Source: Candidatus Hydrogenedentales bacterium
GTDB taxonomy: Bacteria; Hydrogenedentota; Hydrogenedentia; Hydrogenedentales; JAEUWI01
NCBI GenBank assembly: GCA_942492815.1
Contig: OW818658.1
Location: 5,996,284-6,060,283 of the forward strand
DNA: 64,000 nt
Direction of reading: 5' to 3'
Shown here one piece after another: positions 16,304-64,000 of this stretch. The position numbers and the translations under genes are program-made. Each line of letters starts with the position of its first letter. Within the stretch, counting starts at the first letter, position 1. The notes under the pieces were generated by a model, which saw only the letters and a program-made list of their open reading frames with translations, was not told where the DNA came from and ran no database searches.

Positions 16304-16400
16304 GTGTGGTCTCCTCGCCTTCGAAGCACCCGGCTTCAATCGAGGATACAATGTCGCGAGGGGGCCCATGGAGTCAAGAAGGAGACCGAATACGTCACGC

Positions 16401-47817: not shown

Positions 47818-47930
47818 GAAAGATACTCCTTGTTGGGGTCGATTGGACGTCATAGACACCGGGGTAGGATAAAGGGTGGCCGGGGCGAAACTCAATTAAA
47901 ACTCGAATTCACCACGTCTTCCCGCCGCGC

Positions 47931-49004
47931 CTACTTCGTGTGCCCGAGTATCGCCTCTTCCTTGAAGCTCACCAGGATCACCGTGTCCCGAATACCCGTC
48001 GTGCAAATCACGTGGATGGTTCCATCCTTCGCCTGGATCGCCATGGGATAGCCGAAGGTGTTGTCCGTTCCGCTCGTGGCGAGATCGCGGCGGTGGGGCC
48101 AGGTCTGGTCGTTGTCCTCGGAGATGGCCGCAGTCAGGGGTGTGCGATAGTTCATGCTGTCATTGAAGACCAGCAGCAGCTTGCCGCTCTGCAGCTTGAT
48201 GAAGCTCACCGCCGAGTTCGGGTTGGGAAACGGGGAGTTCTTGCCCCGGCTCCACGTCTCGCCGCCGTCGCGCGATTCGGACCGGAGGATGTAGCGCGAC
48301 GTGCTCGGCTCGAAATCGCCGCCGGGGCGGACATAGGCGATCAGGTGCTCGTCCGAAATCTGCACCGGCTCGGGCTGGAGATTGCCGTGTCGCGAACGGA
48401 TACGACCGGTCGGGGTCCACGTGCGCGTCTTCGGGTTGTGGCGCAGGAAGTAGGATCGTGTGTCGGGAAAGGTCCGGTCGATGTCGCTGCCCGTTTCATG
48501 ATAGACCGGAAGGAGGTAGTCGCCGTTGTTCAGCACGATGGGCAGGCCGCGGCACATGGTGCCCAGTTCGAAGTTCAGCACCATCGAGTCGGACCACGTC
48601 TCGCCGCTGTCCTCCGAGATCTTCGCGAGGGTCCGCGATTCCGACCACGTGTCGCCGTAGCGCTGCACGTAGAAGAGCCACAGCAGGCCGTCCGGCGCTT
48701 GCCAGGCGATGCCATTCCCCTCGCCGAGGAAGGGCGTGTCCGCCAGGAGTTTCGGCTCGGACCACGCGGTCTCCCCCGCTTTCCGGCGAATGCCCCAAAC
48801 CTTTGAATCCTCCTCATACTCGCCACCGCCACCGTAATAGGTCGCAAAGAGATCGCCATTGGTCAATTGCGTAATCGCAGCGGGGTGCTTGTACTTCCCG
48901 GGATGCTCCTTGCCAATGACGTGCTCGATAAGGATGTCCTCCGCGGCGAAGGCGGTGAACGAAAAAAGGAAGGCCATTGCGCAAAGCGTGGATGTGTACC
49001 GCAT
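47931..49004 (-). CDS. BNR-repeat sialidase/neuraminidase-like glycosyl hydrolase, secreted (paralog 2)
   Basis: BNR motifs SEDSGETW and SRDGGETW. Tandem duplicate of the 46747-47817 gene. Confidence 0.75.
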   Translation of the reverse strand: MRYTSTLCAMAFLFSFTAFAAEDILIEHVIGKEHPGKYKHPAAITQLTNGDLFATYYGGGGEYEEDSKVWGIRRKAGETAWSEPKLLADTPFLGEGNGIAWQAPDGLLWLFYVQRYGDTWSESRTLAKISEDSGETWSDSMVLNFELGTMCRGLPIVLNNGDYLLPVYHETGSDIDRTFPDTRSYFLRHNPKTRTWTPTGRIRSRHGNLQPEPVQISDEHLIAYVRPGGDFEPSTSRYILRSESRDGGETWSRGKNSPFPNPNSAVSFIKLQSGKLLLVFNDSMNYRTPLTAAISEDNDQTWPHRRDLATSGTDNTFGYPMAIQAKDGTIHVICTTGIRDTVILVSFKEEAILGHTK

Positions 49005-49200
49005 AGGTAGAGCTCCGTTGAAGTGCGGGTTCGACGTCATCTTGCTGGAAGAATATCGGCTGGCCGCGACGGATCGCAACAGGCGGCACGACTGCTGGGG
49101 AGCGACTGACTTCGTGGTGCCGAGGTACGACTTCCGGATGCGCGAATCGAATCTGGAAAATGCCCGGCAATCAACCGCCGGCCGCTGATGGTATGTTCTC

Positions 49201-50109
49201 TTAGCCCGTGAAGTCGGGCAAATAAATCAGCAACCCACAGGCCACGGCCCACAGCACCACCGTGGCACCCAGGGGACGATCTTTAATCAGCGTGCTGCTG
49301 GGATCGCCGCCGCCGGTCTCATGGTGGATCAGGTGGAGATAACGGAAGAGTCCGTAGACCACGAAGGGCAGGGTGATGTAGAGCTTGTCGGTGCCGAGGC
49401 GCTGAATCACTTCGGGGGAGCAGGTATAAATCGTGTAGGTGATCAGCGTGCCCCCGGCCATGATGAGGATAAGCTGATCGAGGTAGTTCACCGTGTAGTG
49501 TTGCAACACCTGCCGGTGAGACTGGGCACCTTCCTCCAGCAGGAGGATTTCCTGGCGGCGCTTGCTCAGGCCGAGGAAGGTGGCGAGGAAAAGGGTGCAC
49601 ACCACGAGCCAGTTGGAAAAGGGCACGTCCAGGGCAATGGCGCCGGCCACGGCGCGGATCACGAAGCCCAGCGCAATGGCGAGCACGTCCACGATCATGA
49701 CGTGTTTGAGCTTGAGCGTATAGGCGAGGGTCAGCACGACATAGGCCAGCAGGGCCACCAGAAACTCCTGCCGGATGGCCCAGGCGATGACCAGGCTCGC
49801 GCCGAAAAGGAGCACCAGCAGCACGCGCGCGGCGGCGGGGCTCATGGCGCCGCTGGCGAGGGGGCGGTGGCATTTCTTGGGGTGTTCGCGGTCGCTCTCG
49901 ATATCGAGGAGGTCGTTGAAGACATAGGTGGCGCTGGCGGCCAGACAGAAGGCGGCAAAGGCCGCCAGGCTCACGAGGGCCTGGCTCGGGTGGCTCAATT
50001 CGCCGGCGAAGACGAGGGCCGCAAAGAGCAGCAAGTTCTTCGTCCACTGGTAGGGACGCATCGCTGCGATGCAGGTCACGATGAAGGGCGGGTGCTTGGT
50101 CTCGGCCAT
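49201..50109 (-). CDS. UbiA-family prenyltransferase; decaprenyl-phosphate 5-phosphoribosyltransferase (DPPR synthase, Rv3806c-like)
   Basis: 302 aa (same length as Rv3806c). YVFNDLLDIESDREHPKKCHRPLASG prenyltransferase motif. Start codon overlaps the dprE2 stop. Confidence 0.75.
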   Translation of the reverse strand: MAETKHPPFIVTCIAAMRPYQWTKNLLLFAALVFAGELSHPSQALVSLAAFAAFCLAASATYVFNDLLDIESDREHPKKCHRPLASGAMSPAAARVLLVLLFGASLVIAWAIRQEFLVALLAYVVLTLAYTLKLKHVMIVDVLAIALGFVIRAVAGAIALDVPFSNWLVVCTLFLATFLGLSKRRQEILLLEEGAQSHRQVLQHYTVNYLDQLILIMAGGTLITYTIYTCSPEVIQRLGTDKLYITLPFVVYGLFRYLHLIHHETGGGDPSSTLIKDRPLGATVVLWAVACGLLIYLPDFTG

Positions 50110-50867
50110 TACATGCTCATCTTCTTGAAGACGCGACGGGGGATATTGCGGATGATCAGCATGATGTAGCGCCAGAAGAAGGGCACATAGGCCTCGTCCT
50201 TACCGGTGCTTACCGCTTTGAAAATGGCCTTGCCCGCCTGGGCCGGCGTGGCAACGAGGGGGCCGGGGAGCGGCAGGCCGAAGGTCATTTTGGTGTCCAC
50301 AAAGCCGGGCTGGATCGTGGTCACGGTCACGTTGGACTTGGCCAGCCGCACGCGGAGCCCTTCGAGGTAGCAGGTCAGCCCCGCCTTCGTCGCACCGTAA
50401 ATGTAGTTCGTCTGTTTGCCGCGATCGCCCGCGACGGACGAAAGGACGCCCAGGAAACCGGAACCGCGATGCTCAAAGACCGCCGCAAAGGCTTCCAGAA
50501 TGGAGATGGCGCTGGTGAGGTTGACCGAGATCATCTTCTCCACTTCGGCCATGTGTTTCTGAGCTTTTTCCTGCTCGGCCATATAGCCATAGCCCAGCAC
50601 GATGCCCGTGGGCTTGGTACCGATGGCGGCCTCGCAGGCTTCCACGAATTTGCCATGGGAGGGGAGGTCTTCGGCGTCGAAATGCAGGGCATGGCAGGGC
50701 ACGCCGTGGCGCACGGCGATATCCGCCGCGAGAATGGCGTTCTCTTCGTCATCCCGCGCGGCGAGCACGAGGGTGTAGCCCGCCGCGGCAAAAGCCTGGG
50801 CCGTGGCCCGGGTGATGCCCGAGGTGGATCCGAGAATGACGGCGCTGGGCCGGAAGTCGGTGCTCAT
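50109..50867 (-). CDS. dprE2: decaprenylphosphoryl-2-keto-beta-D-erythro-pentose reductase DprE2 ortholog (SDR)
   Basis: 252 aa. LGSTSGI Rossmann motif and YGATKAG. The C-terminal ...FWRYIMLIIRNIPRRVFKKM closely parallels Mtb Rv3791 ...FRYVMMVLRHIPRSIFRKL. Confidence 0.8.
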   Translation of the reverse strand: MSTDFRPSAVILGSTSGITRATAQAFAAAGYTLVLAARDDEENAILAADIAVRHGVPCHALHFDAEDLPSHGKFVEACEAAIGTKPTGIVLGYGYMAEQEKAQKHMAEVEKMISVNLTSAISILEAFAAVFEHRGSGFLGVLSSVAGDRGKQTNYIYGATKAGLTCYLEGLRVRLAKSNVTVTTIQPGFVDTKMTFGLPLPGPLVATPAQAGKAIFKAVSTGKDEAYVPFFWRYIMLIIRNIPRRVFKKMSM

Positions 50868-50926
50868 GAGGGATACGCTCTACGTTGGCATTCATTGTGA
50901 TTCGCGGAGTATTGCGCGCAATCGTG

Positions 50927-51000
50927 CAGAGACAACAGGGACGTCAGCGACAGCAGGGTACGCAATTCCTGCTGTCGCTGCTGTCTCTGACGTCCCTGAA
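50927..51000. repeat. REPIN-like NNCAGRGAC inverted-array hairpin, copy 3 (between dprE2 and dprE1)
   Basis: CAGAGACAACAGGGACGTCAGCGACAGCAGGG ... CCTGCTGTCGCTGCTGTCTCTGACGTCCCTGAA. Confidence 0.85.
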
Positions 51001-51033
51001 AAACAGCGGGGTAAGTGTTGGGCATATTGAGCA

Positions 51034-52377
51034 TCACACCAGCCCCAATCGCCGTGCCATGTTGGAGGACAGCACGCCTTTGGGATCGAGGCGCTTCTGT
51101 ATGGCTTTGAACTCGTCCAGGCGCGGGTACATGGCCGCGATGGTCTCCGGACTCGCCACGGCGTCTTTCGCCAGGTAGAGACGTCCATCGTGATCGAGAA
51201 GGATCCGCTCCAGCTCGTGGAGGAAGGGCGTGAGGCCACGGTGGTTTGGCAGATCAAGCGTGAGGGTGTAACCCTTCATGGGATGGGACAACAGGCCGGG
51301 ATTCTGCTCGCCGAAGGTCTTCAAGACGGCGAGGAACGAAGCGCGGCGCGAATCGGCGAGTCGCTGGAGAATGCGGATGAGGCCCTGCTTGCTCTCGTAG
51401 GGCAGTGTGGCCTGAAACTGGGCAAAGCCCTTGCGCCCATAGAGCCGGTTCCAGTGGTGGATGGCGTCCAGGGGATAGAAATACTTGTCGTAGTGCACCA
51501 GCTTGCCGATGGTCGTGGGGTGCGCGGCGTAGAAGACCTTGTTGAAGGCCGTCACGCTCAGGGGATTCAGCACAAACTGGGGGCAGTTGAAGGGCACGTT
51601 CTTCGGGAATTCCCGCTTCAGAGCGAAGGGTGTATTCGCGCGGGCCGGATCGAGCTGGGAAAGCCTCGCGTGATTGCCCTGCATAAGTACGGAGCGGCCC
51701 AGACTCGCGCCCCGCGCCAGGCAATCGACCCAGGCCACGGAATATTTGTGGGCGCCGTCGGTCGCCGCCATGGCATCCAGCGCGTGATCCAAATCGCGGC
51801 ACTGGGTGTAATCCGTCACGATCCAGGAGCTTTCCACGGGCTGAAGCCGCACGCGGGCCGTGAGGATGAACCCCGTGAGTCCCACACCGCCCGCCGTGGC
51901 CCAGAAGACATCGGCGTTCTCGGTTTTCGAGCAATTCAGGATCTCGCCGGTAGGCAGGAGCAGCGTGAAGGATTCCACGAATTCGCAGAAGGTCCCGTCG
52001 CAGTGATGGTTCTTGCCGTGGACGTCATTGGCAATGGCGCCGCCGATGGTCACAAATTTGGTGCCGGGCGTGACCGGGACGAAATAGCCGCGCGGCACAA
52101 AGACGTCGAGAATGTCGGCCAGGCTGACGCCAGCCTCGCACTCGAGTACGCCGGTTTCCTCGTCGAAGCTGATCATGCGGTCGAGACGAGTGGTGTTGAC
52201 CACGCCACCGCCACCGTTGACGGCGGTATCGCCGTAGCTTCGGCCCAGTCCTCGGGCGATGATCGAAGAGGAAGCGTGACCCCCGATGAGGTCGTTCAGG
52301 GTGCGGCGTTTTTCCGGGCGAAAGACGTCACACTTCTCGGGATCCAGGCCGCCCCAGCCGCTGAGGGACTGGTGCAT
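51034..52377 (-). CDS. dprE1: decaprenylphosphoryl-beta-D-ribose 2'-oxidase DprE1 ortholog (FAD-dependent)
   Basis: Motifs IARGLGRSYGD, VTIGGAIANDVHGKNHH, FWATAGGVGLTG and C-terminal YPRLDEFKAIQKRLDPKGVLSSNMARRLGL all parallel Mtb Rv3790. Start chosen at MHQSLSGWGG to match the DprE1 N-terminus. Confidence 0.85.
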   Translation of the reverse strand: MHQSLSGWGGLDPEKCDVFRPEKRRTLNDLIGGHASSSIIARGLGRSYGDTAVNGGGGVVNTTRLDRMISFDEETGVLECEAGVSLADILDVFVPRGYFVPVTPGTKFVTIGGAIANDVHGKNHHCDGTFCEFVESFTLLLPTGEILNCSKTENADVFWATAGGVGLTGFILTARVRLQPVESSWIVTDYTQCRDLDHALDAMAATDGAHKYSVAWVDCLARGASLGRSVLMQGNHARLSQLDPARANTPFALKREFPKNVPFNCPQFVLNPLSVTAFNKVFYAAHPTTIGKLVHYDKYFYPLDAIHHWNRLYGRKGFAQFQATLPYESKQGLIRILQRLADSRRASFLAVLKTFGEQNPGLLSHPMKGYTLTLDLPNHRGLTPFLHELERILLDHDGRLYLAKDAVASPETIAAMYPRLDEFKAIQKRLDPKGVLSSNMARRLGLV

Positions 52378-52642
52378 GGAGGAATCGGCCACGGGTATTC
52401 TCCTGGGTTGGTGTGAAGGTCTCGGCTGTGAAGTGTACTCGGGTGTATATACCCGCCGCAGGCGAAAGTATAACGCCATCGGTCGGATACAAACAAGTCC
52501 GACTGGCGCTATCTGCTTTGTTGACAGGGAATTAGAGGGAAAAACGCATGAAAAAAATGGGGCCCATACGACCTATACGACCCATGTAAGCCATCGCCGG
52601 TGGCCTGCTTCCCGGTCCAGCGCCGCCCCCGGCGATCCACTT

Positions 52643-53449
52643 TCACTGCTCCGGTGTCTTCGGGGACTTGTTCTCCATCAGGATATCATCCAGAATCAGG
52701 ATTCGTTCGCACCAGATCATGAGCAGGGTGCACAGGTAGCGGCGGCCCATTTTGCGCAGGCGCAGGTTGCTGATGCCCCAGGTGCGGCCGGACCAGGTGA
52801 TGGGGACCTGGGCAATGCGGTAGCGCCGGATCAGGCTCGACAGCGACATTTCGATAGTGATGTTGAAGTGGGCCGCCTGCAGCGGAAGGATGCTCTGGAT
52901 CACATGGCGCCGGTAAACCTTGAAGGCGTTGGTGAGGTCGTTGTGGTGGGTCAGGAAGAGCACCTGCATGGCATGGTTCACGATTCGGTTGACCACCAGC
53001 TTCACGGGCGGATAGTGGGTGACACTGCCGCCCTTCATGAAGCGCGATCCGAAGACGCAGTCGTAGCCCTCTTCAATCTTGCGATAGCAGCGCACCACGT
53101 CCAAAGGGTTGTCCGAACTGTCCGCCATGACCACGGCGAGCACGTCGCCCCGGTAGTGGTGTAGTCCGCAGCGGATAGCGCGGCCGAGGCCGCCGGGGGG
53201 CCAGTTGTGGACCAGGTGGATCTCGGGGATTTCCTTCGCCTTCTCCTCGATCACCGCCGTGGTGTTGTCCGTGCTGTTGTCGTTGACCACGAGGAGCTCA
53301 AAGGGGATAGATTCCGCGCGCAGGGCGGCGGCGAGGCTTTCCAGCGTGGGTATGATGTTCTTCTCTTCGTTGTACGCGGGTATAAGAACGGAGTAGAGAA
53401 GGGTATTCTTCTCCACCGGCTGCAACTTAGATTCGGCCTTCGAAACCAT
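52643..53449 (-). CDS. GT2 polyprenyl-phosphate glycosyltransferase (DPM1/GtrB/ArnC-like)
   Basis: [24 protein letters not shown] and DSSD motifs of the GT-A GT2 family. C-terminal extension. The ORF-track 5' extension was rejected in favour of the internal Met. Confidence 0.75.
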
Positions 53450-54488
53450 GGTAGATCTCCCCCAGAAGAGCGTCAATATCGTAGGCGTAGCGCCAGTTCG
53501 GGTAGTGGGACTGAAATTTGCCCACGTCGCTGATCCACCAGATGTGATCGCCGATGCGGTTGTCGTCCTCGTAGCGGATATCCATTTTGTTCCCGGTGAT
53601 GACCTCGCACTTGGCGATGGCTTCCTGCATGGAGCAGTTGCTGTGGCGGCTCCCGCCGATGTTGTACACCTCCCCCGAGCGCGGCGCGCGAAGCACTTCA
53701 AAAAAGCAGTTGACCAGGTCGCTGGAGTGGATATTGTCCCGTACCTGCTTGCCCTTGTAGCCGAAGATGCGGTATTCCTTCTTCGTGATGGCGCATTTCA
53801 TGAGGTAGGACAGAAATCCGTGGAGCTCTGCGCCGGAGTGGCCCGGTCCGGTGAGGCAGCCGCCCCGGAAAACGGCGGTCTTCATGCCGAAATAGCGGCC
53901 ATATTCCTGCACCATGACATCGGCAGCCACCTTGGAAGCACCGAAGACCGAGTGCTTGCACTGGTCGATGGACATGGTCTCGTCGATGCCGTCCTTCGCG
54001 TAGGGGTGGCTCTCGGCCACTTCCCAACGGGTTTCCAACTCCACCAGGGGCAGGTTGTTGGGCGTATCGCCGTAGACCTTGTTGGTCGAGGTGAAAATGA
54101 AAGGCGCTTCTGGGCAATGTTGACGCGTGAGTTCCAGGAGGTTCAGCGTACCCACCGCATTCACGCCGAAATCGGTCAGGGGTTCTTTCGCCGCCCAGTC
54201 GTGGCTCGGCTGGGCCGCCGTGTGCACCACGAGTTCTATGGACGAGCTATAGGATTTGAAGATAGCCTCCAGGGCGCCAAAGTCGCGAATATCCGCCTCG
54301 TGGTGCGCGTAGTTCGCGTGGTCCGCGCGGAGCCGCTCCACCGCCCAATGGGTCGAGGCTTCCTCCCCGAAGAAGTACGCGCGCATGTTGTTGTCCACGC
54401 CCGCCACAGTGTACCCTGCTGCGATGAAGCGGCGGACCGTTTCCGCACCAATCAGACCGGCCGAACCGGTTACCAGAACCACACCCAT
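53427..54488 (-). CDS. NAD-dependent sugar epimerase/dehydratase family protein (extended SDR)
   Basis: [15 protein letters not shown] Rossmann motif. ~350 aa. CDP-paratose-2-epimerase-like. The catalytic YxxxK is not clearly canonical (FGASK). Confidence 0.65.
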
Positions 54489-54631
54489 AAACGCTCCCGA
54501 TGAACGGCACGATACGTAGAAGGAAGAAAACGGCGAAATGCGAGACGCCATTCTAGCGCACAATCGTGCGAGGCTGTCAACCGGCGCGGCGACCCCGAGG
54601 CGGTGTGTTTGGCGCGAGTCGACTTCCTTCA

Positions 54632-54735
54632 CTGCAGGGACGAGAGCGACATCAGGGACGGCAGGCTGCGATGGCCGGAATTTGCTGTCGTTTGCAGAGT
54701 TCCTGCTGTCTCTGCCGTCCCTGACGTCCCTGCAA
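54632..54735. repeat. REPIN-like NNCAGRGAC inverted-array hairpin, copy 4 (divergent promoter region between the two epimerase genes)
   Basis: CTGCAGGGACGAGAGCGACATCAGGGACGGCAGG ... CCTGCTGTCTCTGCCGTCCCTGACGTCCCTGCAA. Confidence 0.85.
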
Positions 54736-54800
54736 CCATCGGCCAGATGCTACGGCTGCTTTGCATTGCCGGTCTCTCGTACCGTTCCCGGAGCCCGCCC

Positions 54801-55865
54801 ATGAAAACCATCCTCGTCACCGGCGGCGCCGGCTTTGTGGGCTCCTGCCTGGCCATGGGCCTCAAAGCACGCGGCGAGAACACCCGCGTGGTCGCCTTCG
54901 ACAATCTCCGCCGGCGCGGCTCCGAGCTGAATCTGCCCCGACTCAAGGCGGCGGGCGTGGAGTTCCTCCATGGCGACATCCGCTGTCCCGGCGACCTGGA
55001 AGAAGTTGGTCCCTTTGACGTGCTCATCGAGTGCAGCGCGGAGCCTTCGGTGCTGGCCGGCTATGGCGGCTCACCCAAGTATGTGCTGGAGACCAACCTG
55101 ACCGGCACGTTGAATTGCCTGGAAGCCGCCCGGCAGCACGGGAGCGACATCCTGTTTCTTTCCACGAGCAGGGTCTATCCCATGGAGACCATTGCGAGCC
55201 TGCGCTACCGCGAGACGGAGACCCGCCTGGAGCTGGAAGCGGAGCAGCCCGTGTCGGGGGCCAGCGCCGAGGGCATCGCGGAGGACTTTCCCCTCGAAGG
55301 GGTACGCTCCCTCTATGGCGCAACCAAACTGGCCTCAGAACTGGTGATGGCGGAGTACCTGTCCATGTACGGCCTGCGGGGCGTCATCAACCGCTGCGGC
55401 GTGCTGACCGGACCCTGGCAGATGGGCAAGGCCGATCAGGGCGTGGTGGTCCTCTGGGCCGCGCGCCATGCCTATGGCGGCGCATTGAAATATATCGGCT
55501 ACGGCGGTCAGGGCAAGCAGGTTCGGGACATGCTCCATGTGGAAGATCTCCTCGATCTGGTGTGTATCCAGCTCGCTCGATTGGACGAGTTCAGCGGGCG
55601 GACCTTCAACGTGGGCGGGGGCCGCGCCGTGAGCACCTCGCTTCAGGAATTGACCGGACTGTGCCAGCGCTTTACAGGCAATACCATCCCCATCGCGGGT
55701 GAAGTTGCGAACCGTGCTGCCGATATACCCCTCTACCTAACAGACAACCGGCGCGTGACGGCGGCCACGGGCTGGACACCGGCGCGCACGGCAGATATGA
55801 TTGTGGAGGAGGTTTGCGCGTGGCTGAGGGACCACGAAGGGGCGCTGCGGCCGCTATTGAGTTGA
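54801..55865 (+). CDS. NAD-dependent sugar epimerase/dehydratase family protein (extended SDR)
   Basis: ILVTGGAGFVGSCLA Rossmann motif. YGATKLASE catalytic YxxxK. Confidence 0.75.
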   Translation: MKTILVTGGAGFVGSCLAMGLKARGENTRVVAFDNLRRRGSELNLPRLKAAGVEFLHGDIRCPGDLEEVGPFDVLIECSAEPSVLAGYGGSPKYVLETNLTGTLNCLEAARQHGSDILFLSTSRVYPMETIASLRYRETETRLELEAEQPVSGASAEGIAEDFPLEGVRSLYGATKLASELVMAEYLSMYGLRGVINRCGVLTGPWQMGKADQGVVVLWAARHAYGGALKYIGYGGQGKQVRDMLHVEDLLDLVCIQLARLDEFSGRTFNVGGGRAVSTSLQELTGLCQRFTGNTIPIAGEVANRAADIPLYLTDNRRVTAATGWTPARTADMIVEEVCAWLRDHEGALRPLLS

Positions 55866-56016
55866 CGGGGGGCGCAGTTTACACGGTCAGATTACACAGT
55901 TTACGCCCTATCCTCTTTTCGGCATGGGAGTTAGACCGAGAATAGGATTGACCGTTTGGGCGGTCGGTGGTATCATGAACATATCTGAAACCCTTGAAAT
56001 ATCGGGAGATGCAAGC

Positions 56017-57045
56017 ATGAAGAAGCCCAGTGGTGTGGAAATGAAGTCCAGCGCGGCCCGCGCCGGTTTCACGCTCATAGAACTCTTGACGGTAATCGCG
56101 ATTATTGCGATCCTCGCGGGGATGACGGCCGTGGCCGTGCCGCGCTATCTTGAAAAGGCCCAAGTTACCAAGGCCAAGACCAATATTGAAAACGTGGCCA
56201 AGGCCCTCGCCGCGAAGTCAGCCGAGTCAGGCAATACCACGGGCTACCCCGTGGCCTACGGCTTTGTGCTGCCCGAAGCCCGGGAAGTTGCGCCTGCCAC
56301 ACTGCTTCTCAACCCGGAGCTTTATTATCAGTTGCGCCCCTATACGGCTGAGATCGGGCTTCACCAGGATCTGAATGTGTACGAGCTACCCCGCTGGATG
56401 CTGTCGGCCTATGACAGCGACAACAACGGCCAGCTCGGGCTCCTGGAGTACTCGCCGATCGGCGAGAAGGATTCCGGCACCAATACCTATACGTTTTCTT
56501 TGGAGATGTACTCCGGTCCGAATGGCGAATTCCCGGGTGCGGGCGCGAGCAACAACCCGGCTATCGTGAGTCTGTCCGAAGTAACCCTGCAATCCAAGGA
56601 CGGCATTCAACGGCCCTTTGCCTATGTGCCCTTCAACAAGCGCCAGCTCTCCGCAATTCGTCGCTACTGGACGAATCAACTTGATGAGTTTGGTACGACG
56701 GTGGACGCGGCGGACCCCGACCTCCAGGGTCGGCTTTTCTTCCCACCGCCGAACTATGACGGATTCGTACTCGTCGGCAATGGCCCCGGTGGTACCAACG
56801 GTGGCGTGGTAGCCGATCCTCCCGCGAAGAGCGGTGCTGGCTACGATGATGCGTACGTTTACCACATGGCGGCGTTGCGCACGGCTTTCCTGGCCACGCG
56901 CGACTGGGATCGGGACGGAGTCGGTGGCGGACAGCCCGACGGCAAACGGGACTTCGACTTCGAGGCCCGCAAGGACGCGCAGGAACTGAACATGCTGCCC
57001 GACGGCACCAACGGGGCTGGTGCCTTCATCAAGGTGGTTGAGTAA
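56017..57045 (+). CDS. type IV pilin/pseudopilin-like protein with a prepilin-type N-terminal cleavage/methylation motif and a large C-terminal domain
   Basis: Motif ...ARAGFTLIELLTVIAIIAILAGM, followed by a GspG-like alpha1 helix (AVPRYLEKAQVTKAKTNIENVAKAL). 343 aa; Ser/Thr/Gly-rich C-terminal part. An alternative start lies at 56041. Confidence 0.75.
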   Translation: MKKPSGVEMKSSAARAGFTLIELLTVIAIIAILAGMTAVAVPRYLEKAQVTKAKTNIENVAKALAAKSAESGNTTGYPVAYGFVLPEAREVAPATLLLNPELYYQLRPYTAEIGLHQDLNVYELPRWMLSAYDSDNNGQLGLLEYSPIGEKDSGTNTYTFSLEMYSGPNGEFPGAGASNNPAIVSLSEVTLQSKDGIQRPFAYVPFNKRQLSAIRRYWTNQLDEFGTTVDAADPDLQGRLFFPPPNYDGFVLVGNGPGGTNGGVVADPPAKSGAGYDDAYVYHMAALRTAFLATRDWDRDGVGGGQPDGKRDFDFEARKDAQELNMLPDGTNGAGAFIKVVE

Positions 57046-57072
57046 CCCGTTATCCACATAGCACGTAAATCT

Positions 57073-57108
57073 CGCGGCAGGTCTTCGGACCTGCCGCGTT
57101 TCTTTTGG
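57073..57108 (+). terminator. Rho-independent terminator of the pilin-like gene
   Basis: CGCGGCAGGTC-TTCG-GACCTGCCGCG followed by TTTCTTTT. Confidence 0.7.
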
Positions 57109-57109
57109 G

Positions 57110-57812
57110 CCCGGGGGGGGACCGTCCTGCACGAACAAAATCGCCTTCCGCAAGTGCCGCGTTGCAACAGGAAGTACCCTCCAACCGAGGGAGATCAACC
57201 ACCCGTGCGGGACCGTCCCCCGCTTTAAAAGCGCGGGACGGTCCCGAACGCGCAGAGGTCTTGCGGCGCGCTGCCGTGATTCGCACGACCCACGGACCTC
57301 ACCCGTGACACCGTTGCCCGGACGTTCAGGACGGTCCCGTCGTAACGCGGGGACTGTCCTGCACGAACAAAATCGCCTTCCGCAAATGCCGCGTTGCAAC
57401 AAAAAGCACCCTCCAACCGAGGGAGATCAACCACGCGTGCGGGACCGTCCCCCGTTTTAAAAGCGCGGGACGGTCCCGAACGCACAGGGGGCTGCGGCAG
57501 GCTTCCGTGGTCCGTATGACCTGCGGACCTCACCCGTGACCCCGGTGCCCGGACGTTCAGGACGGTCCCGTCGTAACGCGGGGACTGTCCTGCACGAACA
57601 AAATCGCCTTCCGCAAATGCCGCGTTGCAACAAAAAGCACCCTCCAACCGAGGGAGATCAACCACGCGTGCGGGACCGTCCCCCGTTTTAAAAGCGCGGG
57701 ACGGTCCCGAACGCATAGTGTGCTTCGTCCAACCGGGTTTCACCGATCGAACCACACTACCTATCATAAATCAAGAGCCCCTGCGTTCAGGACGGTCCCG
57801 TCGTTGCGCTAT
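57110..57812. repeat. direct tandem repeat, ~240-bp unit x ~2.6 copies, each carrying several GGGAC(C/T)GTCCC palindromes (related to the MITE-like terminal inverted repeats at 37.7 kb)
   Basis: Unit boundaries at ~57113, 57353 and 57593. Motifs CGCGGGACGGTCCCGAACGC, CGTTCAGGACGGTCCCGTCG and GGGGACTGTCCTGCACGAAC recur. Confidence 0.9.
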
Positions 57813-57851
57813 ACTACGCCCCCGATGTCTCTCCACTAGAAAGCCTTTCCC

Positions 57852-58679
57852 ATGTTTCATGACTTCATCGAGCCCGGCGTTCCGGTCGTGCTCTTCTGGA
57901 TCTTCGTCTCCGTCGCCATCATCATCCAGGGCATCAGCAAATCCGGCTTTGCGGGCGGTGCGGGGATCCTGTCACTGCCGCTGATGATGCTGGTGATGCC
58001 CGTCGACAAAGTCGCGGCGACGCTGCTGCCCCTGCTGATCCTGTGCGACTTCAACGCGATCTACCACCACCGGCACAACAAGGACTGGACACAGGTGATG
58101 CGGATCTTTGTGCCGTCGTGCCTCGGCATCGTGCTGGGAGCGCTGGTGTGGTGGAAGATCGGGCGCGAGGGTGTGGAGTTTTACAGCCTCTTGATCAAGC
58201 GCATGGTGGGCGTGATCGCGATTATCTTCGGACTCTACATCGCCGCGAAGGACCAATCCATGGCGTGGGTGGCGCACCACAAGGCGGGGCGGAAGACGGC
58301 GGTGATCGTGGGTATCGTGGCCGGCTTCACGTCCACCATTGCCCACGCTGCCGGGCCCATCGTGAGCCTGTATATATACTCTCAGGGCTTCAACAAGACC
58401 CTCTTCGTGGGAACGGTGGCCTGGACCTTCACGCTGATCAACCTGACCAAGCTGCCCTTTTATGCCTGGGCCGGACTCGTGGATACGAGCGTACTCTGGT
58501 TCGACGCATGCCTCGTGGCGCTGATCCCGGTGGGCTCGTGGCTCGGCCACTGGATGCACCACCGGGTGTCGAAATGGTGGTTCAGCCGGATCATCATGGT
58601 GCTGACCCTGGTGGCGGGCGTGCAGTTGTTGTTTGACGTGCAGGTGATCCAGTGGGCGCTGGAACTGCTGGTGCGCTAA
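57852..58679 (+). CDS. TauE/SafE-family (DUF81) sulfite-exporter-like membrane protein
   Basis: 275 aa, ~8 TM. Duplicated four-TM halves with GxGGG-like motifs (FAGGAGILSLPLM, AHAAGPIVSLYI). Confidence 0.7.
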   Translation: MFHDFIEPGVPVVLFWIFVSVAIIIQGISKSGFAGGAGILSLPLMMLVMPVDKVAATLLPLLILCDFNAIYHHRHNKDWTQVMRIFVPSCLGIVLGALVWWKIGREGVEFYSLLIKRMVGVIAIIFGLYIAAKDQSMAWVAHHKAGRKTAVIVGIVAGFTSTIAHAAGPIVSLYIYSQGFNKTLFVGTVAWTFTLINLTKLPFYAWAGLVDTSVLWFDACLVALIPVGSWLGHWMHHRVSKWWFSRIIMVLTLVAGVQLLFDVQVIQWALELLVR

Positions 58680-58722
58680 GCGGGACAGACCGCAACTCAT
58701 ACTCCGGTGATTTTTCGCTGAT

Positions 58723-58811
58723 TTCAGGGACAACAGGGACTTCAGAGACGGCAGTAAAAGAAGCTCTTAACGATCTCACTGCTGTCCCTGTTGTCCCTGC
58801 TGTCTCTGCAA
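58723..58811. repeat. REPIN-like NNCAGRGAC inverted-array hairpin, copy 5
   Basis: TTCAGGGACAACAGGGACTTCAGAGACGGCAG ... CACTGCTGTCCCTGTTGTCCCTGCTGTCTCTGCAA. Confidence 0.85.
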
Positions 58812-58897
58812 CCTCCTAACGACGCCAGCGGTATGCATCGTGCCCACTAAGGTATACGCGCGCCCCCAACCCGCGCCAACCTGGAAGGACCATACCC

Positions 58898-59425
58898 GTG
58901 GAAATTGAAACGCCCCGCCTGCGATTGCGCCCCTGGCGTTTGGAAGACAAACCCGCACTGCTGCGCCACGCGGACAACCCGAACGTTTCGCGCAACCTCT
59001 GCAACATGTTCCAATCGCCCTACACCGAGGCGGATGCGGAATCGTGGATTCAGAGCTGTCTGGCCACCGAGGGCCCGTGCAGAAAATTCGCCATCGAGAT
59101 CGAGGGCGAGGTGGTCGGGGGAATCGGAATCCACCCGCGAGAGGACGTCTTGGCGCAGACGGCGGAGATCGGTTACTGGCTCGGCGAATCCAACTGGGGC
59201 CGGGGCTACATGACCGAGGCGCTCCGCGCGATCGTGATTCATGCCTTCGAGACCTTTGAGTATCACCGGCTGGAGGCGGGCCATTTCGGGTGGAACCCGG
59301 CCTCGGGGCGCGTGCTCGAAAAAGCGGGCTTTCAACTGGAAGGCTGCCAGCGCGAGCGATTCTTCAAGAACGGCGAGTTTACCGACAACATGATCTATGG
59401 CCTGTTACGTGACGAGATCGTATAA
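58898..59425 (+). CDS. GNAT-family N-acetyltransferase (RimJ/RimL-like)
   Basis: TPRLRLRPWRLED... and the acetyl-CoA-binding core (IGYWLGESNWGRGYMTEALRAI). Confidence 0.75.
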   Translation: MEIETPRLRLRPWRLEDKPALLRHADNPNVSRNLCNMFQSPYTEADAESWIQSCLATEGPCRKFAIEIEGEVVGGIGIHPREDVLAQTAEIGYWLGESNWGRGYMTEALRAIVIHAFETFEYHRLEAGHFGWNPASGRVLEKAGFQLEGCQRERFFKNGEFTDNMIYGLLRDEIV

Positions 59426-59444
59426 CACGTGACTAGCCACTCAT

Positions 59445-59545
59445 GGGACGGATCAGACGGATCGGACCGATCTGCTTGATTAGATCGGTCTGATCCGTCC
59501 GATTGACTACGCGCCGTCAATTGTCCATTGTCCATTGTCAATTGA
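59445..59545. repeat. GATC-rich palindromic element copy D (59445-59505) immediately followed by (CAATTGT)-type heptamers (59516-59545), 10 nt upstream of the ABC exporter start
   Basis: GGGACGGATCAGACGGATCGGACCGATCTGCTTGATTAGATCGGTCTGATCCGTCCGATTG, then GTCAATTGTCCATTGTCCATTGTCAATTG. Confidence 0.85.
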
Positions 59546-59556
59546 TATAATCCGCC

Positions 59557-61329
59557 ATGACCTTCGGCTCCCCCACATTCTGGCGCTTTCTCCGCTACGC
59601 CCGCCCCTACCGCTTTTACATTCTCGGCTCGGTGGCGACGGGCGTGGTGAAGTTTACCCTCGCGCTCCTGCTTCCCTTTGCCATGGGCTATTCCCTGGAC
59701 CATATTATCCTGGCGAATATCCCCGGTGACGAGAAGATGAACCGGCTCCTCCAGATGTCGTGGATTCTCATCGCGGTGTTCATCGCCCGCATCCCCATCG
59801 CTTACTACCGCTCCTACTGGGCGGAACTGGCGGGCAATCGCACCATCTTCGACATCCGCAACGCCCTCTACGCCCACGTCCAATCCCTCGGGCTCGCCTA
59901 CCACGCGGGCCAGCGCACCGGCGCCACCACCTCGCGCCTGACGAACGACATCAACCAGGCCCAGGGCATCCTCGATCGGGGCGTCATGTCCGTGGCGGTC
60001 GATTTCATTTTTCTTGTGGGCGTGGTGATCTTTCTCTTCTTCAAAAACTGGCAACTGGCCACGGCGAGCCTTTTCACCCTGCCCATGTACGCCCTCGTCT
60101 TCGGTCTGCTCAACCCGCGCCTTCGCGTGGCGTCCCAGCGCTCCCTTGACGAGATGTCCCACCTTTCCGGCGAGATCAACGAAAAGCTCACGGGCCACAG
60201 CGTGGTCATGTCCTTCGTGCGCGAGCGCTCCGAGCGCCTCCGCTTCATGAAGTTGCACCGGAAGTACTATGACGAAGTGATGGTGCGCACCCGGATCCAC
60301 GTCTCCATGTTTCAAGTGGGCGAGTTCTTCACCATGGTCGGCCCGCTGGTGGTTACCCTGGTGGGCACCTGGCTTGCCGTGAATGGCTCCCTCACGCCCG
60401 GAGAACTGGCGGCCTTCAGCGGCTACCTCGCCCACCTCTATCTGCCCACGCGCCGCCTGGCCGACGCCTCCGCCGCCGTTCAGATGCAGCTCGCAGGCAT
60501 GGACCGCGTCTTCGCCATTCTCGATGTACGGCCCGACATCGCCGACACGCCCGACGCCAAGCCCCTTCGACTCACCGAGGGCCGCATCACTTTCGACAAC
60601 GTGTACTTTTCCTACCTCGACGACCAGCCCGTGATCGAGGGCATTTCCCTCGAAGTAGAGCCCGGCCAGGCCGTGGCCATCGTGGGTCGCAGCGGTGGCG
60701 GCAAGAGCACCCTGGTGAAGCTCGTGCCCCGATTCTACGACGTAAAGAGCGGCGCAATACGCATCGACGGCCAGGACATCCGCGACGTCACGCTCCACTC
60801 TCTGCGCGAGAAGATCGGCATGGTGATGCAGGACGCGATCCTCTTCGGCGGCTCCGTGCGCGAGAACATCCTCTATGGTCGCCGCGGCGCCACGGAAGAA
60901 GAGATGCTCGAAGCGGCCCGCATGGCCCACGTGGACGAGTTCGTGGACGAATTGCCCAAGGGCTACGACACCCTCATCGGCGAGCGCGGCGTGACCCTCA
61001 GCGGCGGCCAGAAGCAACGCCTCAGCATCGCCCGGGCTTTCCTGCGCGACCCGGAAATCCTCATCCTCGACGAAGCCACCTCCAGCCTCGACTCCCACGC
61101 GGAAAACGTGATCCAGGAAGCCCTGGAGCGCCTCATGAAAGGCCGGACCACGCTGGTCATCGCCCACCGCCTCGCCACCGTCGTGGACTGCGACCGCGTT
61201 GTCGTGATCGAAGACGGCCGCATCGTCCAGGACGGCGCCCACGACGCCCTCATCAACGAAGAAGGCCCCTACCGCGCGCTGTGCGAAGAGCAATTCGGCG
61301 CAGTGCAGTTGGAAGATCTGGCGGGTTAA
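59557..61329 (+). CDS. ABC exporter, fused permease/ATPase (MsbA-like half-transporter)
   Basis: Six-TM N-terminal domain. Walker A GRSGGGKST. Signature LSGGQKQRLSIARA. Walker B ILILDEAT. Confidence 0.9.
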   Translation: MTFGSPTFWRFLRYARPYRFYILGSVATGVVKFTLALLLPFAMGYSLDHIILANIPGDEKMNRLLQMSWILIAVFIARIPIAYYRSYWAELAGNRTIFDIRNALYAHVQSLGLAYHAGQRTGATTSRLTNDINQAQGILDRGVMSVAVDFIFLVGVVIFLFFKNWQLATASLFTLPMYALVFGLLNPRLRVASQRSLDEMSHLSGEINEKLTGHSVVMSFVRERSERLRFMKLHRKYYDEVMVRTRIHVSMFQVGEFFTMVGPLVVTLVGTWLAVNGSLTPGELAAFSGYLAHLYLPTRRLADASAAVQMQLAGMDRVFAILDVRPDIADTPDAKPLRLTEGRITFDNVYFSYLDDQPVIEGISLEVEPGQAVAIVGRSGGGKSTLVKLVPRFYDVKSGAIRIDGQDIRDVTLHSLREKIGMVMQDAILFGGSVRENILYGRRGATEEEMLEAARMAHVDEFVDELPKGYDTLIGERGVTLSGGQKQRLSIARAFLRDPEILILDEATSSLDSHAENVIQEALERLMKGRTTLVIAHRLATVVDCDRVVVIEDGRIVQDGAHDALINEEGPYRALCEEQFGAVQLEDLAG

Positions 61330-61419
61330 AGTCTGTCGCACATACGCCACGATTGTTGATGCATGTCATAGTGACCAATGGTACAATGGCGAAGAGGTAG
61401 AATCCCGAGGAGGCCGCGC

Positions 61420-61635
61420 GTGTCAAACATCAAGAAGCAAATTGTGACCGACGAAAGCGGCCGCCCGATAGCCGTTCAGATTTCCTACGACGACTGGGTT
61501 CGGCTGGAGGCACGATTGGCCGAGAAAGGCGAGCCGCCCGCAAAGACCGGCGATCTGAGCAAGCACTTCGGAGTCATGCCGCTCCGCTTCGACCCCATGG
61601 AGTTTCAGCAACGGGCACGTAGCGAATGGCCGTAG
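61420..61635 (+). CDS. type II antitoxin (VapB/Phd-like) paired with the downstream PIN toxin
   Basis: Small ORF with GTG start after a GAGGAGG ribosome-binding site. Overlaps vapC by 10 nt. Motif QIVTDESGRPIAVQISYDDW. Confidence 0.6.
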   Translation: MSNIKKQIVTDESGRPIAVQISYDDWVRLEARLAEKGEPPAKTGDLSKHFGVMPLRFDPMEFQQRARSEWP

Positions 61636-62024
61636 GCCAGGTGCTCGATACCAACGTCGTGCTCTACCATCTTGGCGGACGATTGGCGGAGCCAATTAGC
61701 GGCACGCAGTGCTGCGTGTCTATTGTCACGCAATTGGAACTCCTGTCATATCCGGACATCACTCCAGCGGAAGAATCATTCATCCGCACCTTCCTGGCGG
61801 ACCTCACCATTGTCGACTTGAGTTCGGAAATTTGTCAGTCAACGGTCTATCTCCGCCGGGCCTATCGCTTGAAGCTTCCCGACGCTATCATTTGCGCCAC
61901 CGCTCTCGCGCTGAATGCAACGCTTTTGACAAACGACAAGCAACTTGCGGCAGTCTCCGAAATCCGCATGGAACGTGTAGCCCTCAGTTCCCAGGAAGGA
62001 CAGGGCACCCCAGACCCCAACTAG
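61626..62024 (+). CDS. vapC: PIN-domain ribonuclease toxin
   Basis: LDTNVVLYHL (first conserved Asp). ...TNDKQLAA (C-terminal acidic residue). 132 aa. Confidence 0.75.
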   Translation: MAVGQVLDTNVVLYHLGGRLAEPISGTQCCVSIVTQLELLSYPDITPAEESFIRTFLADLTIVDLSSEICQSTVYLRRAYRLKLPDAIICATALALNATLLTNDKQLAAVSEIRMERVALSSQEGQGTPDPN

Positions 62025-62069
62025 CAAGGGGCAAGAACGGGAATCACATTGAGAAAGGGAGGCCTTGTG

Positions 62070-63332
62070 ATGAAATCGATTAGAAACCCGCTTCTTGTAC
62101 TTGACCGGAAATCCTGGCCGGGGGGCTTTCGCCTATTCCCGATCGCATTGCTCGCGGTGCTGGCGGCGGGTTGTTCGTTGGAGCCCACTCACAAGATCTA
62201 TTACACCGAGACGGTGTCCGCCGTGGATTCCACAAATAAAGTGGGCGTCGACATTTACAAGATCCTGGCAAAAGACGAGGGAAATCTGTGCATCTCGCCG
62301 CTGAGCATCGCGATGAACCTTTCGACCGTCCTGGCCGGCGCGCGCGGGAAGACGGCGAATGAGATCAACGCCGTCCTGGGCATCCCGCCGGGCGGTGGCA
62401 TTCACGAAGGGTTCAGCGAACTTCGCGCGATGATCGAAGGGAGCAACTCCGAGGATTGCCAGACGATATTGGCCAATGTGCTGGCGTATCAGGAAGGCAT
62501 GGACCTGAACGCCCAGTTTTTGGGAATTCTGGACAAGAATTATTCTGCCGCACGACTTCCATTGAATTTCGCGAATCGCTCGGACGATGCGAGGGATCGG
62601 CTGAATACCTGGATCGCAGAAAACACGAAGGGCCGAATCCGGGGCTTTTTGACGGGGGACGATATAACTCCGTACACCAGGGTTATACTTGCGAACGCTC
62701 TTACCTTCGACGCCAAGTGGGATCGGGAATTTGATCCGAAGGTTACAAAGGAAGCACCGTTTTTCCCGGAAGACGAGCGCGAAGTATCCGTTCCCATGAT
62801 GAAGCGGAAAGGTGTCTTCCGCTTATCGGCTCCAGCGGACGGCGTTCAAGTTCTTCGCCTGCCCTATCGCGGAGGACAAGTGGAAATGGTACTGGTGCTG
62901 CCCGTAATGGGTGAAAAACTGAAAACGGTGGAACGGGCGCTTTCCGCCCGGCAGCTTCAACAATGGGTAGATCAGTGCCAGAGCGAGCCATCCGAGGTTT
63001 ACTTACCACGTTTCACAGGTCATACACGTAGCGATCTGCTGGGCGCGCGCTCCCAATTAGGCATGGCATGCGCGTTCAAGCCGACTTGCGCCGACTTTTC
63101 GGGCATCACAAGCGAGCCCTACCACGTTGGTCTGGTAAAGCATGGCTGTTACGTGGAGGTGGATGAGGAAGGCACCAAGGCGGCGGCAGTAACCGCAACT
63201 GGGTTGCTCGGTGGCGGGGCCGGAGATGAATTTCGCGCCGTCCGGCCCTTCCTGTATTTCATCCGCGAAACCACGTCCGGAGCAATCTTGCTGATGGGGC
63301 GTGTCACGAATCCGATGGCGCTGGAAACGTGA
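62070..63332 (+). CDS. serpin-family serine protease inhibitor, lipoprotein
   Basis: Lipobox LAAGCS. Serpin motifs NALTFDAKWDREF, hinge EEGTKAAAVTATG and C-terminal FLYFIRETTSGAILLMGRVTNP. Confidence 0.85.
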   Translation: MKSIRNPLLVLDRKSWPGGFRLFPIALLAVLAAGCSLEPTHKIYYTETVSAVDSTNKVGVDIYKILAKDEGNLCISPLSIAMNLSTVLAGARGKTANEINAVLGIPPGGGIHEGFSELRAMIEGSNSEDCQTILANVLAYQEGMDLNAQFLGILDKNYSAARLPLNFANRSDDARDRLNTWIAENTKGRIRGFLTGDDITPYTRVILANALTFDAKWDREFDPKVTKEAPFFPEDEREVSVPMMKRKGVFRLSAPADGVQVLRLPYRGGQVEMVLVLPVMGEKLKTVERALSARQLQQWVDQCQSEPSEVYLPRFTGHTRSDLLGARSQLGMACAFKPTCADFSGITSEPYHVGLVKHGCYVEVDEEGTKAAAVTATGLLGGGAGDEFRAVRPFLYFIRETTSGAILLMGRVTNPMALET

Positions 63333-63530
63333 GACCGAAGTAAGCCCGTAACATTCTACCCATCCACCGGGACGGGCACGCGCGTTGACGGCCACAATCA
63401 CGTATTTGGCCAATGCCGCGCGGCCGAAATCCGATAGTGGAACCGCGGACGCGCAAAGCTTACAATACAACCCCAATGTGGGAACCAAGGCAAAGCCAAT
63501 GGCCCGAAGCGATTTAAGGAGAGAGTTCGG

Positions 63531-64000
63531 ATGGGGAATATGACCGGCGTGCTCAGCGAGGTGGACGTCACCCGTGACGTGGGAGCAATCGTATTGGGGG
63601 GCGGTCGGGGGACGCGCCTTTATCCCCTGACCAAGGTGCGCGCCAAACCCGCGGTGCCCCTGTGCGGCCGTTACCGGCTCGTGGACATTCCCCTGAGCAA
63701 CTGCCTCAACTCCCAGATCAACAAGATCGCGGTATTGACCCAGTACAACAGCCACTCCCTCAACCGCCACATCAACAACACCTACCGCTTCGACATGTTC
63801 AGCGGCGGCATGGTGGAGGTGCTGGCCGCCGAGCAGACCGATTTGGCCAGCGGCAACGAATGGTTCCAGGGCACGGCGGACGCCGTGCGGAAGCAATTTG
63901 TCCACATCCGCGATCAGGGCGTGTCCCACTATGTCATTCTTTCGGGCGATCAGCTCTATCGCATGGATTACCGGGAACTCCTCGAAACCCACTTTAACAA
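63531..64000 (+). CDS. glgC: glucose-1-phosphate adenylyltransferase (ADP-glucose pyrophosphorylase), 3' partial
   Basis: Hand translation gives [61 protein letters not shown], a classical GlgC N-terminus. Open to the window end, so it is absent from the ORF track. Ribosome-binding site AAGGAGAG upstream. Confidence 0.85.

Follow-up and report, generated by a model that had tools for sequence, protein, structure and literature searches.

A gene set of the mycobacterial DprE1/DprE2/UbiA type in a Hydrogenedentales genome: a probable source of lipid-linked D-arabinofuranose next to a separable pilin-like gene cassette

Does a bacterium of an uncultured candidate phylum carry the mycobacterial type of route to lipid-linked D-arabinofuranose (Araf), and is a pilin-like protein encoded nearby the acceptor of that sugar? 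The question is raised by a 64,000-nucleotide stretch of the genome of a Candidatus Hydrogenedentales bacterium (assembly GCA_942492815.1, contig OW818658.1, positions 5,996,284 to 6,060,283), which was analysed at its full length and is called the window below; its reported G+C content is 58-66%. The initial annotation assigned three of its genes to a UbiA-family phosphoribosyltransferase, DprE2 and DprE1 (hereafter the trio), and noted further on a glycosyltransferase, two sugar epimerases and a prepilin-type protein (Table 1). It regarded the trio as the complete route from phosphoribosyl pyrophosphate (PRPP) to decaprenyl-phospho-arabinofuranose, and pentosylation of the pilin or of another envelope protein as a concrete hypothesis.

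The identity of the trio was assessed with the curated cut-offs of NCBIfam and by sequence search of PDB. Open reading frames (ORFs) are present on the minus strand where the initial annotation had placed them, and the PDB matches agree with Rv3806c, DprE2 and DprE1, the curated cut-offs with the first and the last of these. On the NCBIfam equivalog for decaprenyl-phosphate phosphoribosyltransferase (NF008977), which has a cut-off of 234, the UbiA protein reaches 283.8 bits. Its top PDB match, over the full length, is Rv3806c of M. tuberculosis (8j8j, E-value 1.9e-38), and the next family follows at 1e-3. An NDxxDxxxD motif aligns with that of 8j8j, and identity to the ortholog in a related locus, L003, is 82%. 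The short-chain reductase (SDR) encoded between the other two genes finds mycobacterial DprE2 (21gq_C) as its top PDB match, again over the full length (1.5e-29; next SDR 4.5e-17), and exceeds the cut-off of the generic model NF005489/PRK07102 (281 vs. 267). A 1-nucleotide overlap of its stop codon with the UbiA start suggests translational coupling. The DprE1 protein passes the equivalog NF053785 by a margin of about 2 bits (502.3 vs. 500) and aligns with PDB DprE1 over residues 5-446 (E-value 1.4e-93). It retains the DxHGKNHH motif, as DVHGKNHH, and the context of the catalytic lysine (AKD/LAKD), and has threonine at the position of Cys387, the benzothiazinone target. An alternative GTG start at 52392 would extend it to 452 residues, as in close homologs. 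More than 8000 DprE1 homologs were scored, and the closest, 75-93% identical, lie on metagenome contigs. By the criterion of the initial annotation, its assignment would fail if the proteins were most similar to unrelated subfamilies of FAD oxidases, SDRs or UbiA proteins; instead, the mycobacterial enzyme is the best full-length PDB sequence match for all three proteins, far ahead of other subfamilies. Judged by these sequence comparisons, the trio is a true DprE1/DprE2-like/DPPR-synthase set.

It is likely that this set makes a polyprenyl-phospho-beta-D-arabinofuranose donor, and that the surrounding block consists of two separable modules. In the proposed scheme a phosphatase would take off the 5-phosphate, the DprE1-type flavoenzyme would oxidise the 2'-OH of the ribose, and the DprE2-like reductase would bring the keto intermediate to the arabino configuration. 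Once the donor, on its presumed polyprenyl carrier, had been flipped, a GT-C glycosyltransferase would use it on the periplasmic side of the inner membrane. The best candidate for this last step would be a GT39/PMT_2-like protein encoded after UbiA and glgC in related loci. The acceptor may be a glycan rather than a protein: by analogy with published systems an envelope glycan (polysaccharide or lipopolysaccharide-like) is the default expectation, on which we would place an even bet, with the pilin-like protein as the less favoured candidate.

The place of this GT-C relative to the trio emerges from comparison with the related loci. These are colinear with the window at 92.5% nucleotide identity in L005, 80% nucleotide identity in L001 and L002, and 79% amino acid identity in L003. 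Their common order is [epimerase 1-GT2]-DprE1-SDR-UbiA-glgC-GT-C-lexA; L001, L002 and L003 extend through GT-C-lexA, and L005 spans epimerase 1 through glgC. The window ends within a glgC fragment that is 98% identical (tblastn) to the NTP_transferase gene of L001, itself GlgC with 550 vs. 537 bits on NF002772, so the neighbourhood that the trio has in its relatives continues past the window end. Across the UbiA-glgC junction L005, L001 and L003 are colinear, whereas in the window the trio is on the minus strand, glgC is on the plus strand and a long segment lies between them. At the other end of this segment, the order epimerase 2-pilin-TauE-...-ABC-...-BNR_2-...-BNR_2-HisPhos-TolC in L007 is that of the window flipped. 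Both junctions, UbiA-glgC and BNR_2-ABC, differ from those of the relatives, and flipping the 14.2-kb segment restores both orders; the segment is thus inverted relative to all relatives. No inverted repeats were found in a search at its breakpoints, and the inversion may be either a real rearrangement or a misassembly. Given the inversion, the GT-C of the relatives is expected just past the right end of the window, and by this gene order the GT39-like GT-C of the present genome should lie directly beyond it, after glgC.

In the relatives this GT-C comprises 517-525 residues, matches Pfam PMT_2 and belongs to a family whose members are named "glycosyltransferase family 39" by NCBI. It has about 10-12 transmembrane helices, an invariant W-Y-D-E just past the first of them and a C-terminal alpha/beta domain of 140 residues, which matched no TPR family; a sequence search of PDB with the whole protein gave no match. 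Two DprE1/GT-C pairs (P0010/P0249 and P0012/P0252) have longest contigs of equal size, 18,308 and 79,930 nucleotides, respectively, which suggests that each pair shares a contig. The protein is a credible user of a polyprenyl-phosphate-sugar donor, and its fold reveals neither the donor sugar nor the acceptor. The GT-C-like membrane protein at 9186-10820, which the initial annotation had put forward as a distant candidate, was rejected as the partner: this multi-pass protein of 544 residues has no match in Pfam or NCBIfam, its first transmembrane helix is not followed by an acidic motif, and it is unrelated to the relatives' GT-C.

Several points weigh against the donor scheme. The DprE2-like SDR scores 163 on the curated DprE2 model, below the required 250, and the donor is, for this phylum, a predicted product. 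The window itself shows no such GT-C, and in the relatives the GT-C gene abuts glgC, a glycogen gene, and in L003 overlaps it. A fold search places the relatives' GT-C no closer to AftA, AftB, AftD and EmbA than to ALG12, Pmt4 and ArnT. Its putative link to the trio comes from synteny within one order-level clade, a synteny interrupted in the present genome by the inversion and absent from a more distant Hydrogenedentes genome (L173-L175; GCA_035388445.1 and JGI contigs). There, at 10001-17516, DprE1-SDR is followed by Laminin_G_3, MBOAT and AlgX-domain genes, and neither UbiA nor a GT-C is found within 10 kb of DprE1. Finally, the 302-residue UbiA protein carries no extra domain, a six-frame scan of the window gave no PAP2 signature for a 5-phosphatase, and a heuristic search of the window found no small multi-transmembrane ORF of the GtrA/SMR-like flippase type. 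With both phosphatase and flippase missing, the pathway as seen in the window is incomplete, and the description of the trio as a complete route, qualified in part by the initial annotation itself, was not confirmed. As a separate observation, the Laminin_G_3, MBOAT and AlgX genes of L173 are of polysaccharide-modification (O-acetylation) types.

Phosphatase mutants in other organisms keep reduced glycosylation (bioRxiv 10.1101/2020.04.19.049825; PMC5080398). A UbiA protein of about 480-500 residues, not 300, is encoded beside DprE1 in many loci of proteobacteria and other organisms (among them L011, L013, L023, L060, L065, L070, L080, and L083). A size of about 480 residues fits the 482-position model NF006088, in which the UbiA region starts near position 192; from length and model, these long forms may be fused to a phosphatase (HAD), the form missing from the window. 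Two other phosphatase-like proteins of the window, His_Phos_1 (45880-46647) and Metallophos_2 (42907-43533), are not linked to the trio in the relatives. The former was rejected as the missing enzyme, since its closeness to UbiA is due to the inversion and in L007 it adjoins TolC and BNR_2. The two BNR_2 genes, which stand beside UbiA by the rearrangement only, were likewise rejected as parts of the system. They (46747-47895 and 47931-49079) encode paralogous sialidase-like beta-propellers with hydrophobic, signal-peptide-like N termini; the pair is kept beside His_Phos_1 and TolC in L007, and L003 has one BNR_2 gene about 8 kb from DprE1.

The distribution of DprE1 was surveyed by a pattern search in which each species was represented by a single genome; at least 597 of these genomes encode a DprE1 relative. 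They include members of Terriglobia, Bacillota, Myxococcota, Planctomycetota, Bacteroidota, Campylobacterales, Alpha- and Betaproteobacteria, Chlorobiaceae and many Actinomycetota. Neighbouring genes were counted in the 80 best loci, which come from other phyla: an SDR gene adjoins DprE1 in 71 of these, and UbiA does so in 61. Within 6 kb, 34 of them encode a membrane protein of at least 380 residues with at least 8 transmembrane segments, and only one has an ORF with a prepilin motif within 10 kb. The pooled membrane proteins (n=41, including the GT-Cs of two relatives) comprise eight PMT_2, two GT87 and one DUF6541 proteins, and many are without a Pfam match. The trio is a conserved and widespread module that is usually not associated with a pilin. 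It is no longer accurate that, outside Actinobacteria, the pathway is well described for the arabinosylation of pilins only: genes noeCHOP and noeN serve the arabinosylation of Nod factors (PMC5080398), and pentofuranose side chains of Gram-negative polysaccharides are made by widespread systems of three components, namely a polyprenyl-phosphoribose synthase, a flippase and a GT-C, with DprE1/E2 homologs found wherever the side-chain sugar is Araf (Kelly et al., 2024; PMC11127046).

In this lineage the block consists of two separable modules lying side by side. Module A comprises DprE1, DprE2 and UbiA, joined in the relatives by glgC and the GT-C. Module B comprises the GT2 and epimerase 1 genes on one strand and the epimerase 2 and pilin-like genes on the other. 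The enzymes of module B were correctly recognised by the initial annotation. The GT2 protein matches in PDB the Dol-P-Man synthase of Pyrococcus (3e-18), ArnC (3e-15) and GtrB (5e-10), and the two epimerases have CDP-tyvelose 2-epimerase as their best match (epimerase 1: 9rl0, 1e-31, and 1orr, 3e-30; epimerase 2: 1orr, 7e-40). The two modules are apart in the related metagenome-assembled genome ERZ24842257, where GT2-epimerase 1 / epimerase 2-pilin-TauE is found on NODE_222 and DprE1-SDR-UbiA-glgC-GT-C-lexA on another contig, NODE_58.

The protein at the end of module B is a prepilin-type protein, as the initial annotation held: it has a class III signal (G|FTLIELL), conforming to G|F-x-x-x-E, and a pilin fold with a long N-terminal helix and a beta-sheet head, and weakly resembles type IVb pilins. 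The large Ser/Thr/Gly-rich C-terminal domain ascribed to it was not confirmed: serine and threonine account for 9.4% of the C-terminal 265 residues and glycine for about 10% of the mature protein. About 156 full-length proteins of 300-370 residues make up the family; nearly all of them are metagenomic, and most of the source names given are Hydrogenedentes. Two EF-hand-like loops, YDSDNNGQLGLLEY and TRDxDxDG...DFDF, are conserved in the family, suggesting calcium binding in the head domain. The gene is preceded by that of the epimerase and followed by a hairpin resembling a terminator, an array of repeats and TauE. The promoter-like and terminator-like signals on either side (Table 1) suggest that it forms its own transcription unit.

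The reading that fares best among the rivals ties the pilin-like protein to module B and not to arabinose, with the trio merely a neighbour. One or both of the epimerases would produce an epimer of a nucleoside diphosphate-hexose or -deoxyhexose, the GT2, which is of the polyprenyl-phosphate glycosyltransferase type, would transfer it to polyprenyl phosphate, and an unlinked GT-C would pass it to the pilin-like protein or to a glycan handled together with it. The four-gene arrangement recurs in L089 and L172, and in L090 without epimerase 1 (GT2 / epimerase 2-pilin-TauE); in these three loci, and also in L006 and L007, epimerase 2 immediately precedes the pilin-like gene. GT2 is 75-85% identical in L089, L090 and L172, with no DprE1 nearby, and epimerase 1 is 77-86% identical in L089 and L172. 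The arrangement GT2-epimerase 1 / epimerase 2-pilin persists in L172 with different flanks, where identity of the pilin falls to 36% and that of GT2 and the epimerases is 70-86%. Homologs of the GT2 or the epimerases are absent from all of 80 generic prepilin loci, taken from a metagenome scan that matched only the generic N-terminal motif and reused here as a negative control. Since the partners in module B recur without the trio, the pilin-like gene is stably linked to the GT2 and TyvE-like epimerase genes, not to the arabinose genes. Against this, one locus (L171) has the pilin-like gene alone, with no GT2 or epimerases nearby, and the five independent contexts belong to one phylum-level group, for which inherited synteny is possible. 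The pilin-like gene also appears to be its own transcription unit, the cassette contains no GT-C, and no conserved Ser/Thr sites were found. This explanation retains a modest chance; as a separate hypothesis on the pilin-like gene, a tie to the GT2/TyvE-like sugar module appears better supported by synteny than arabinosylation.

O-arabinofuranosylation of the pilin-like protein by way of the lipid-linked sugar, in the manner of the group IV pilins of P. aeruginosa, is unlikely. The pilin-like gene lies about 3.6 kb from DprE1, in an arrangement probably shared with the closest relatives (epimerase 1-glgC in L005, epimerase-pilin in L006), and the true pilin fold, the class III signal peptide, and promoter-like and terminator-like signals of its own, as often seen for major pilin genes, would suit such a role. 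The protein also evolves fast, as surface proteins do: its identity across loci is 36-52%, where GT2 and the epimerases stay at 70-86%. Both the trio and the pilin family occur in ERZ24842257, and pilA, tfpW and Araf genes are clustered in P. indica and K. denitrificans (bioRxiv 10.1101/2020.04.19.049825). Yet in ERZ24842257 the two are on different contigs, the cassettes of L090 and L172 have no DprE1 within 10 kb, and only one of the 80 DprE1 loci has a prepilin motif within 10 kb. No GT-C flanks the pilin-like gene here or in L006, L007, L089, L090 and L172, the neighbours in the window being an epimerase and TauE, unlike tfpW, which directly follows pilA; the nearest GT-C has no TPR domain. 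The protein is poor in Ser/Thr, and an alignment of 98 family sequences contains no conserved surface Ser/Thr cluster. A scan of the ORFs of the window found no genes for pilus or type II secretion assembly (PilB/C/D/Q, Gsp). Of the pentosylation hypothesis, the genuineness of the trio stands, and the link to the pilin is weak: separate contigs, one locus in 80 and the lack of a flanking GT-C all tell against it.

Equally doubtful is a combined system, an undescribed pilin glycosylation in Hydrogenedentota with polyprenyl-monophosphate donors, in which the fast-evolving pilin of about 330 residues would be served through the GT2/TyvE-like cassette and, in the lineage of the window only, D-Araf from the fused arabinose operon would be added by the GT39-like GT-C. 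Least probable of all is that the trio makes another lipid-linked pentose, stops at ribofuranose or serves a non-glycan product, so that the DprE names would be overstated: the SDR is below the curated DprE2 cut-off, DprE1 is above its own by 2 bits only and related systems deliver ribofuranose or xylofuranose as set by an auxiliary epimerase (Kelly et al., PMC11127046), but DprE1/E2 pairs accompany Araf glycans, xylofuranose uses a different, single SDR (PMC11127046), homologous non-actinobacterial pairs yield D-Araf in P. aeruginosa and rhizobia (bioRxiv 10.1101/2020.04.19.049825; PMC5080398), and the full-length alignments of DprE1 and DprE2 retain the active-site motifs.

Table 1. Features of the two modules and of the inverted segment in the window
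Feature	Position	Strand	Remarks
UbiA-family polyprenyl-phosphate 5-phosphoribosyltransferase (Rv3806c/DPPR-synthase type)	49201..50109	-	302 residues, no fused HAD phosphatase
DprE2-like SDR	50109..50867	-	252 residues, between DprE1 and UbiA
DprE1-type FAD-dependent polyprenylphosphoryl-ribose 2'-oxidase	51034..52377	-	447 residues
GT2 polyprenyl-phosphate glycosyltransferase, DPM1/ArnC/GtrB type	52643..53449	-	268 residues; Pfam Glycos_transf_2
CDP-tyvelose-2-epimerase-like SDR no. 1 (epimerase 1)	53427..54491	-	354 residues; stop overlaps GT2 start
CDP-tyvelose-2-epimerase-like SDR no. 2 (epimerase 2)	54801..55865	+	354 residues; divergent; 29% identical to no. 1
Sigma-70-like promoter match	55948..55976	+	TTGACC-17-TATCAT, extended TG, 10/12 positions; consensus match only
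Prepilin-type (class III signal peptide) pilin-fold protein	56014..57045	+	~334-343 residues, large divergent head, two EF-hand-like loops
Intrinsic-terminator-like hairpin	57073..57098	+	28 nucleotides after the pilin-like stop; 11-bp stem, 9 GC pairs, T-rich tail
Inverted segment, 14.2 kb	49216..63423		flipped relative to all relatives; splits UbiA-glgC and BNR_2-ABC junctions
glgC 5' part (glucose-1-phosphate adenylyltransferase)	63531..64000	+	first 156 codons, runs off the window

Genome analysis also revealed repeated elements in the window. At 501-3203 the gene of an IS200/Y1-type transposase (1504-2130, minus strand) lies between two tandem arrays (501-1486 and 2171-3203) of 185-289-nucleotide units with palindromic cores, an arrangement that resembles the REP-associated tyrosine transposases with their repeats. 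Between the pilin-like gene and TauE, at 57117-57715, a 231-nucleotide unit is repeated 2.6 times; the spacer is much shorter in the relatives. Each copy carries the palindrome GCGGGACCGTCCCCCG...CGCGGGACGGTCCCGA, related to the cores that flank the Y1 transposase (10 hits vs. 0.2 expected). A second family of intergenic palindromes, of the type CAGGGACGTCAGCGACAGCAG, is present at 50925-51001, 54633-54734, 58722-58810 and 28409-28429 (9 hits vs. 0 expected), with one copy between the DprE2-like and DprE1 genes and one in the divergent epimerase promoter region; contigs of the relatives tend to break near elements of this type. Other features comprise a protein of 1155 residues without a Pfam match (4534-8001), a bacterial serpin gene (62049-63332; Pfam Serpin, E-value 1.5e-92) with an N-terminal hydrophobic segment, and, immediately past the gene of the TolC-like protein, 7.7 copies of the 7-nucleotide unit ATTGTCA (44360-44413). 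Scans of the window against Rfam and for tRNA genes gave no hits.

These results extend the mycobacterial type of arabinofuranose donor pathway to an uncultured candidate phylum and add to the evidence that the pathway is a common bacterial means of envelope decoration; the part played by D-Araf in environmental glycans may have been underestimated. In practice the gain is modest, as the trio genes are already named by annotation in some sources and a general form of the concept was published in 2024. More original as a lead is the conserved pilin-like/GT2/TyvE-like cassette, a testable candidate for glycosylation of surface filaments in Hydrogenedentota.

Among the known systems, the rhizobial noeCHOP/noeN operon has in common with this locus homologs of the decaprenyl-phospho-arabinofuranose enzymes outside Actinobacteria (PMC5080398). 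Its acceptor is a lipo-chitooligosaccharide and its transferase NoeP is system-specific, whereas the locus described here has no nod context.

The group IV pilin system of P. aeruginosa (PsPA7_6245-6249 and pilA-tfpW) likewise includes a DPPR synthase, DprE1 and DprE2 in a Gram-negative organism, with a pilin-fold protein encoded nearby. In that organism tfpW lies directly downstream of pilA and codes for a 646-residue GT-C with a C-terminal TPR domain, and the cluster also contains Rv3807c-like and GtrA-like genes (bioRxiv 10.1101/2020.04.19.049825). In contrast, the pilin-like gene of the window is not flanked by a GT-C and encodes a protein of about 330 residues that is poor in Ser/Thr; GtrA-like and Rv3807c-like genes are missing, and pilin and trio are separable in the relatives. 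The architecture of TfpW, as it is described (about 11 transmembrane helices, DDx in the first periplasmic loop and a large C-terminal TPR domain), is not matched by the relatives' GT-C.

The mycobacterial and corynebacterial pathway comprises Rv3806c, Rv3807c, DprE1 (Rv3790), DprE2 (Rv3791) and GT-C transferases of the Emb/Aft type. The window contains no phosphatase of the Rv3807c type, no protein of the Rv3789/GtrA type and no transferase of the Emb/Aft type; the nearest GT-C is GT39/PMT_2-like, threonine replaces Cys387 in DprE1, and the host belongs to the Gram-negative-type Hydrogenedentota, without an arabinogalactan context. The three core enzymes are full-length homologs in both, and the same chemistry, from PRPP to polyprenyl-phospho-Araf, is predicted for them.

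The three-component systems of Kelly et al. (2024; PMC11127046) consist of a polyprenyl-phosphoribose synthase, a flippase and a GT-C of family GT136. They differ from this locus, where the synthase is not fused to a HAD phosphoribose phosphatase domain, no flippase gene was found in the window, the genes lie outside a recognisable O-antigen or capsule cluster and the candidate GT-C is PMT_2/GT39-like by family match. They resemble it in the UbiA-type polyprenyl-phosphoribose synthase as the entry point, in the DprE1/E2 homologs that act as the auxiliary epimerase pair for Araf, and in a GT-C as the expected final transferase.

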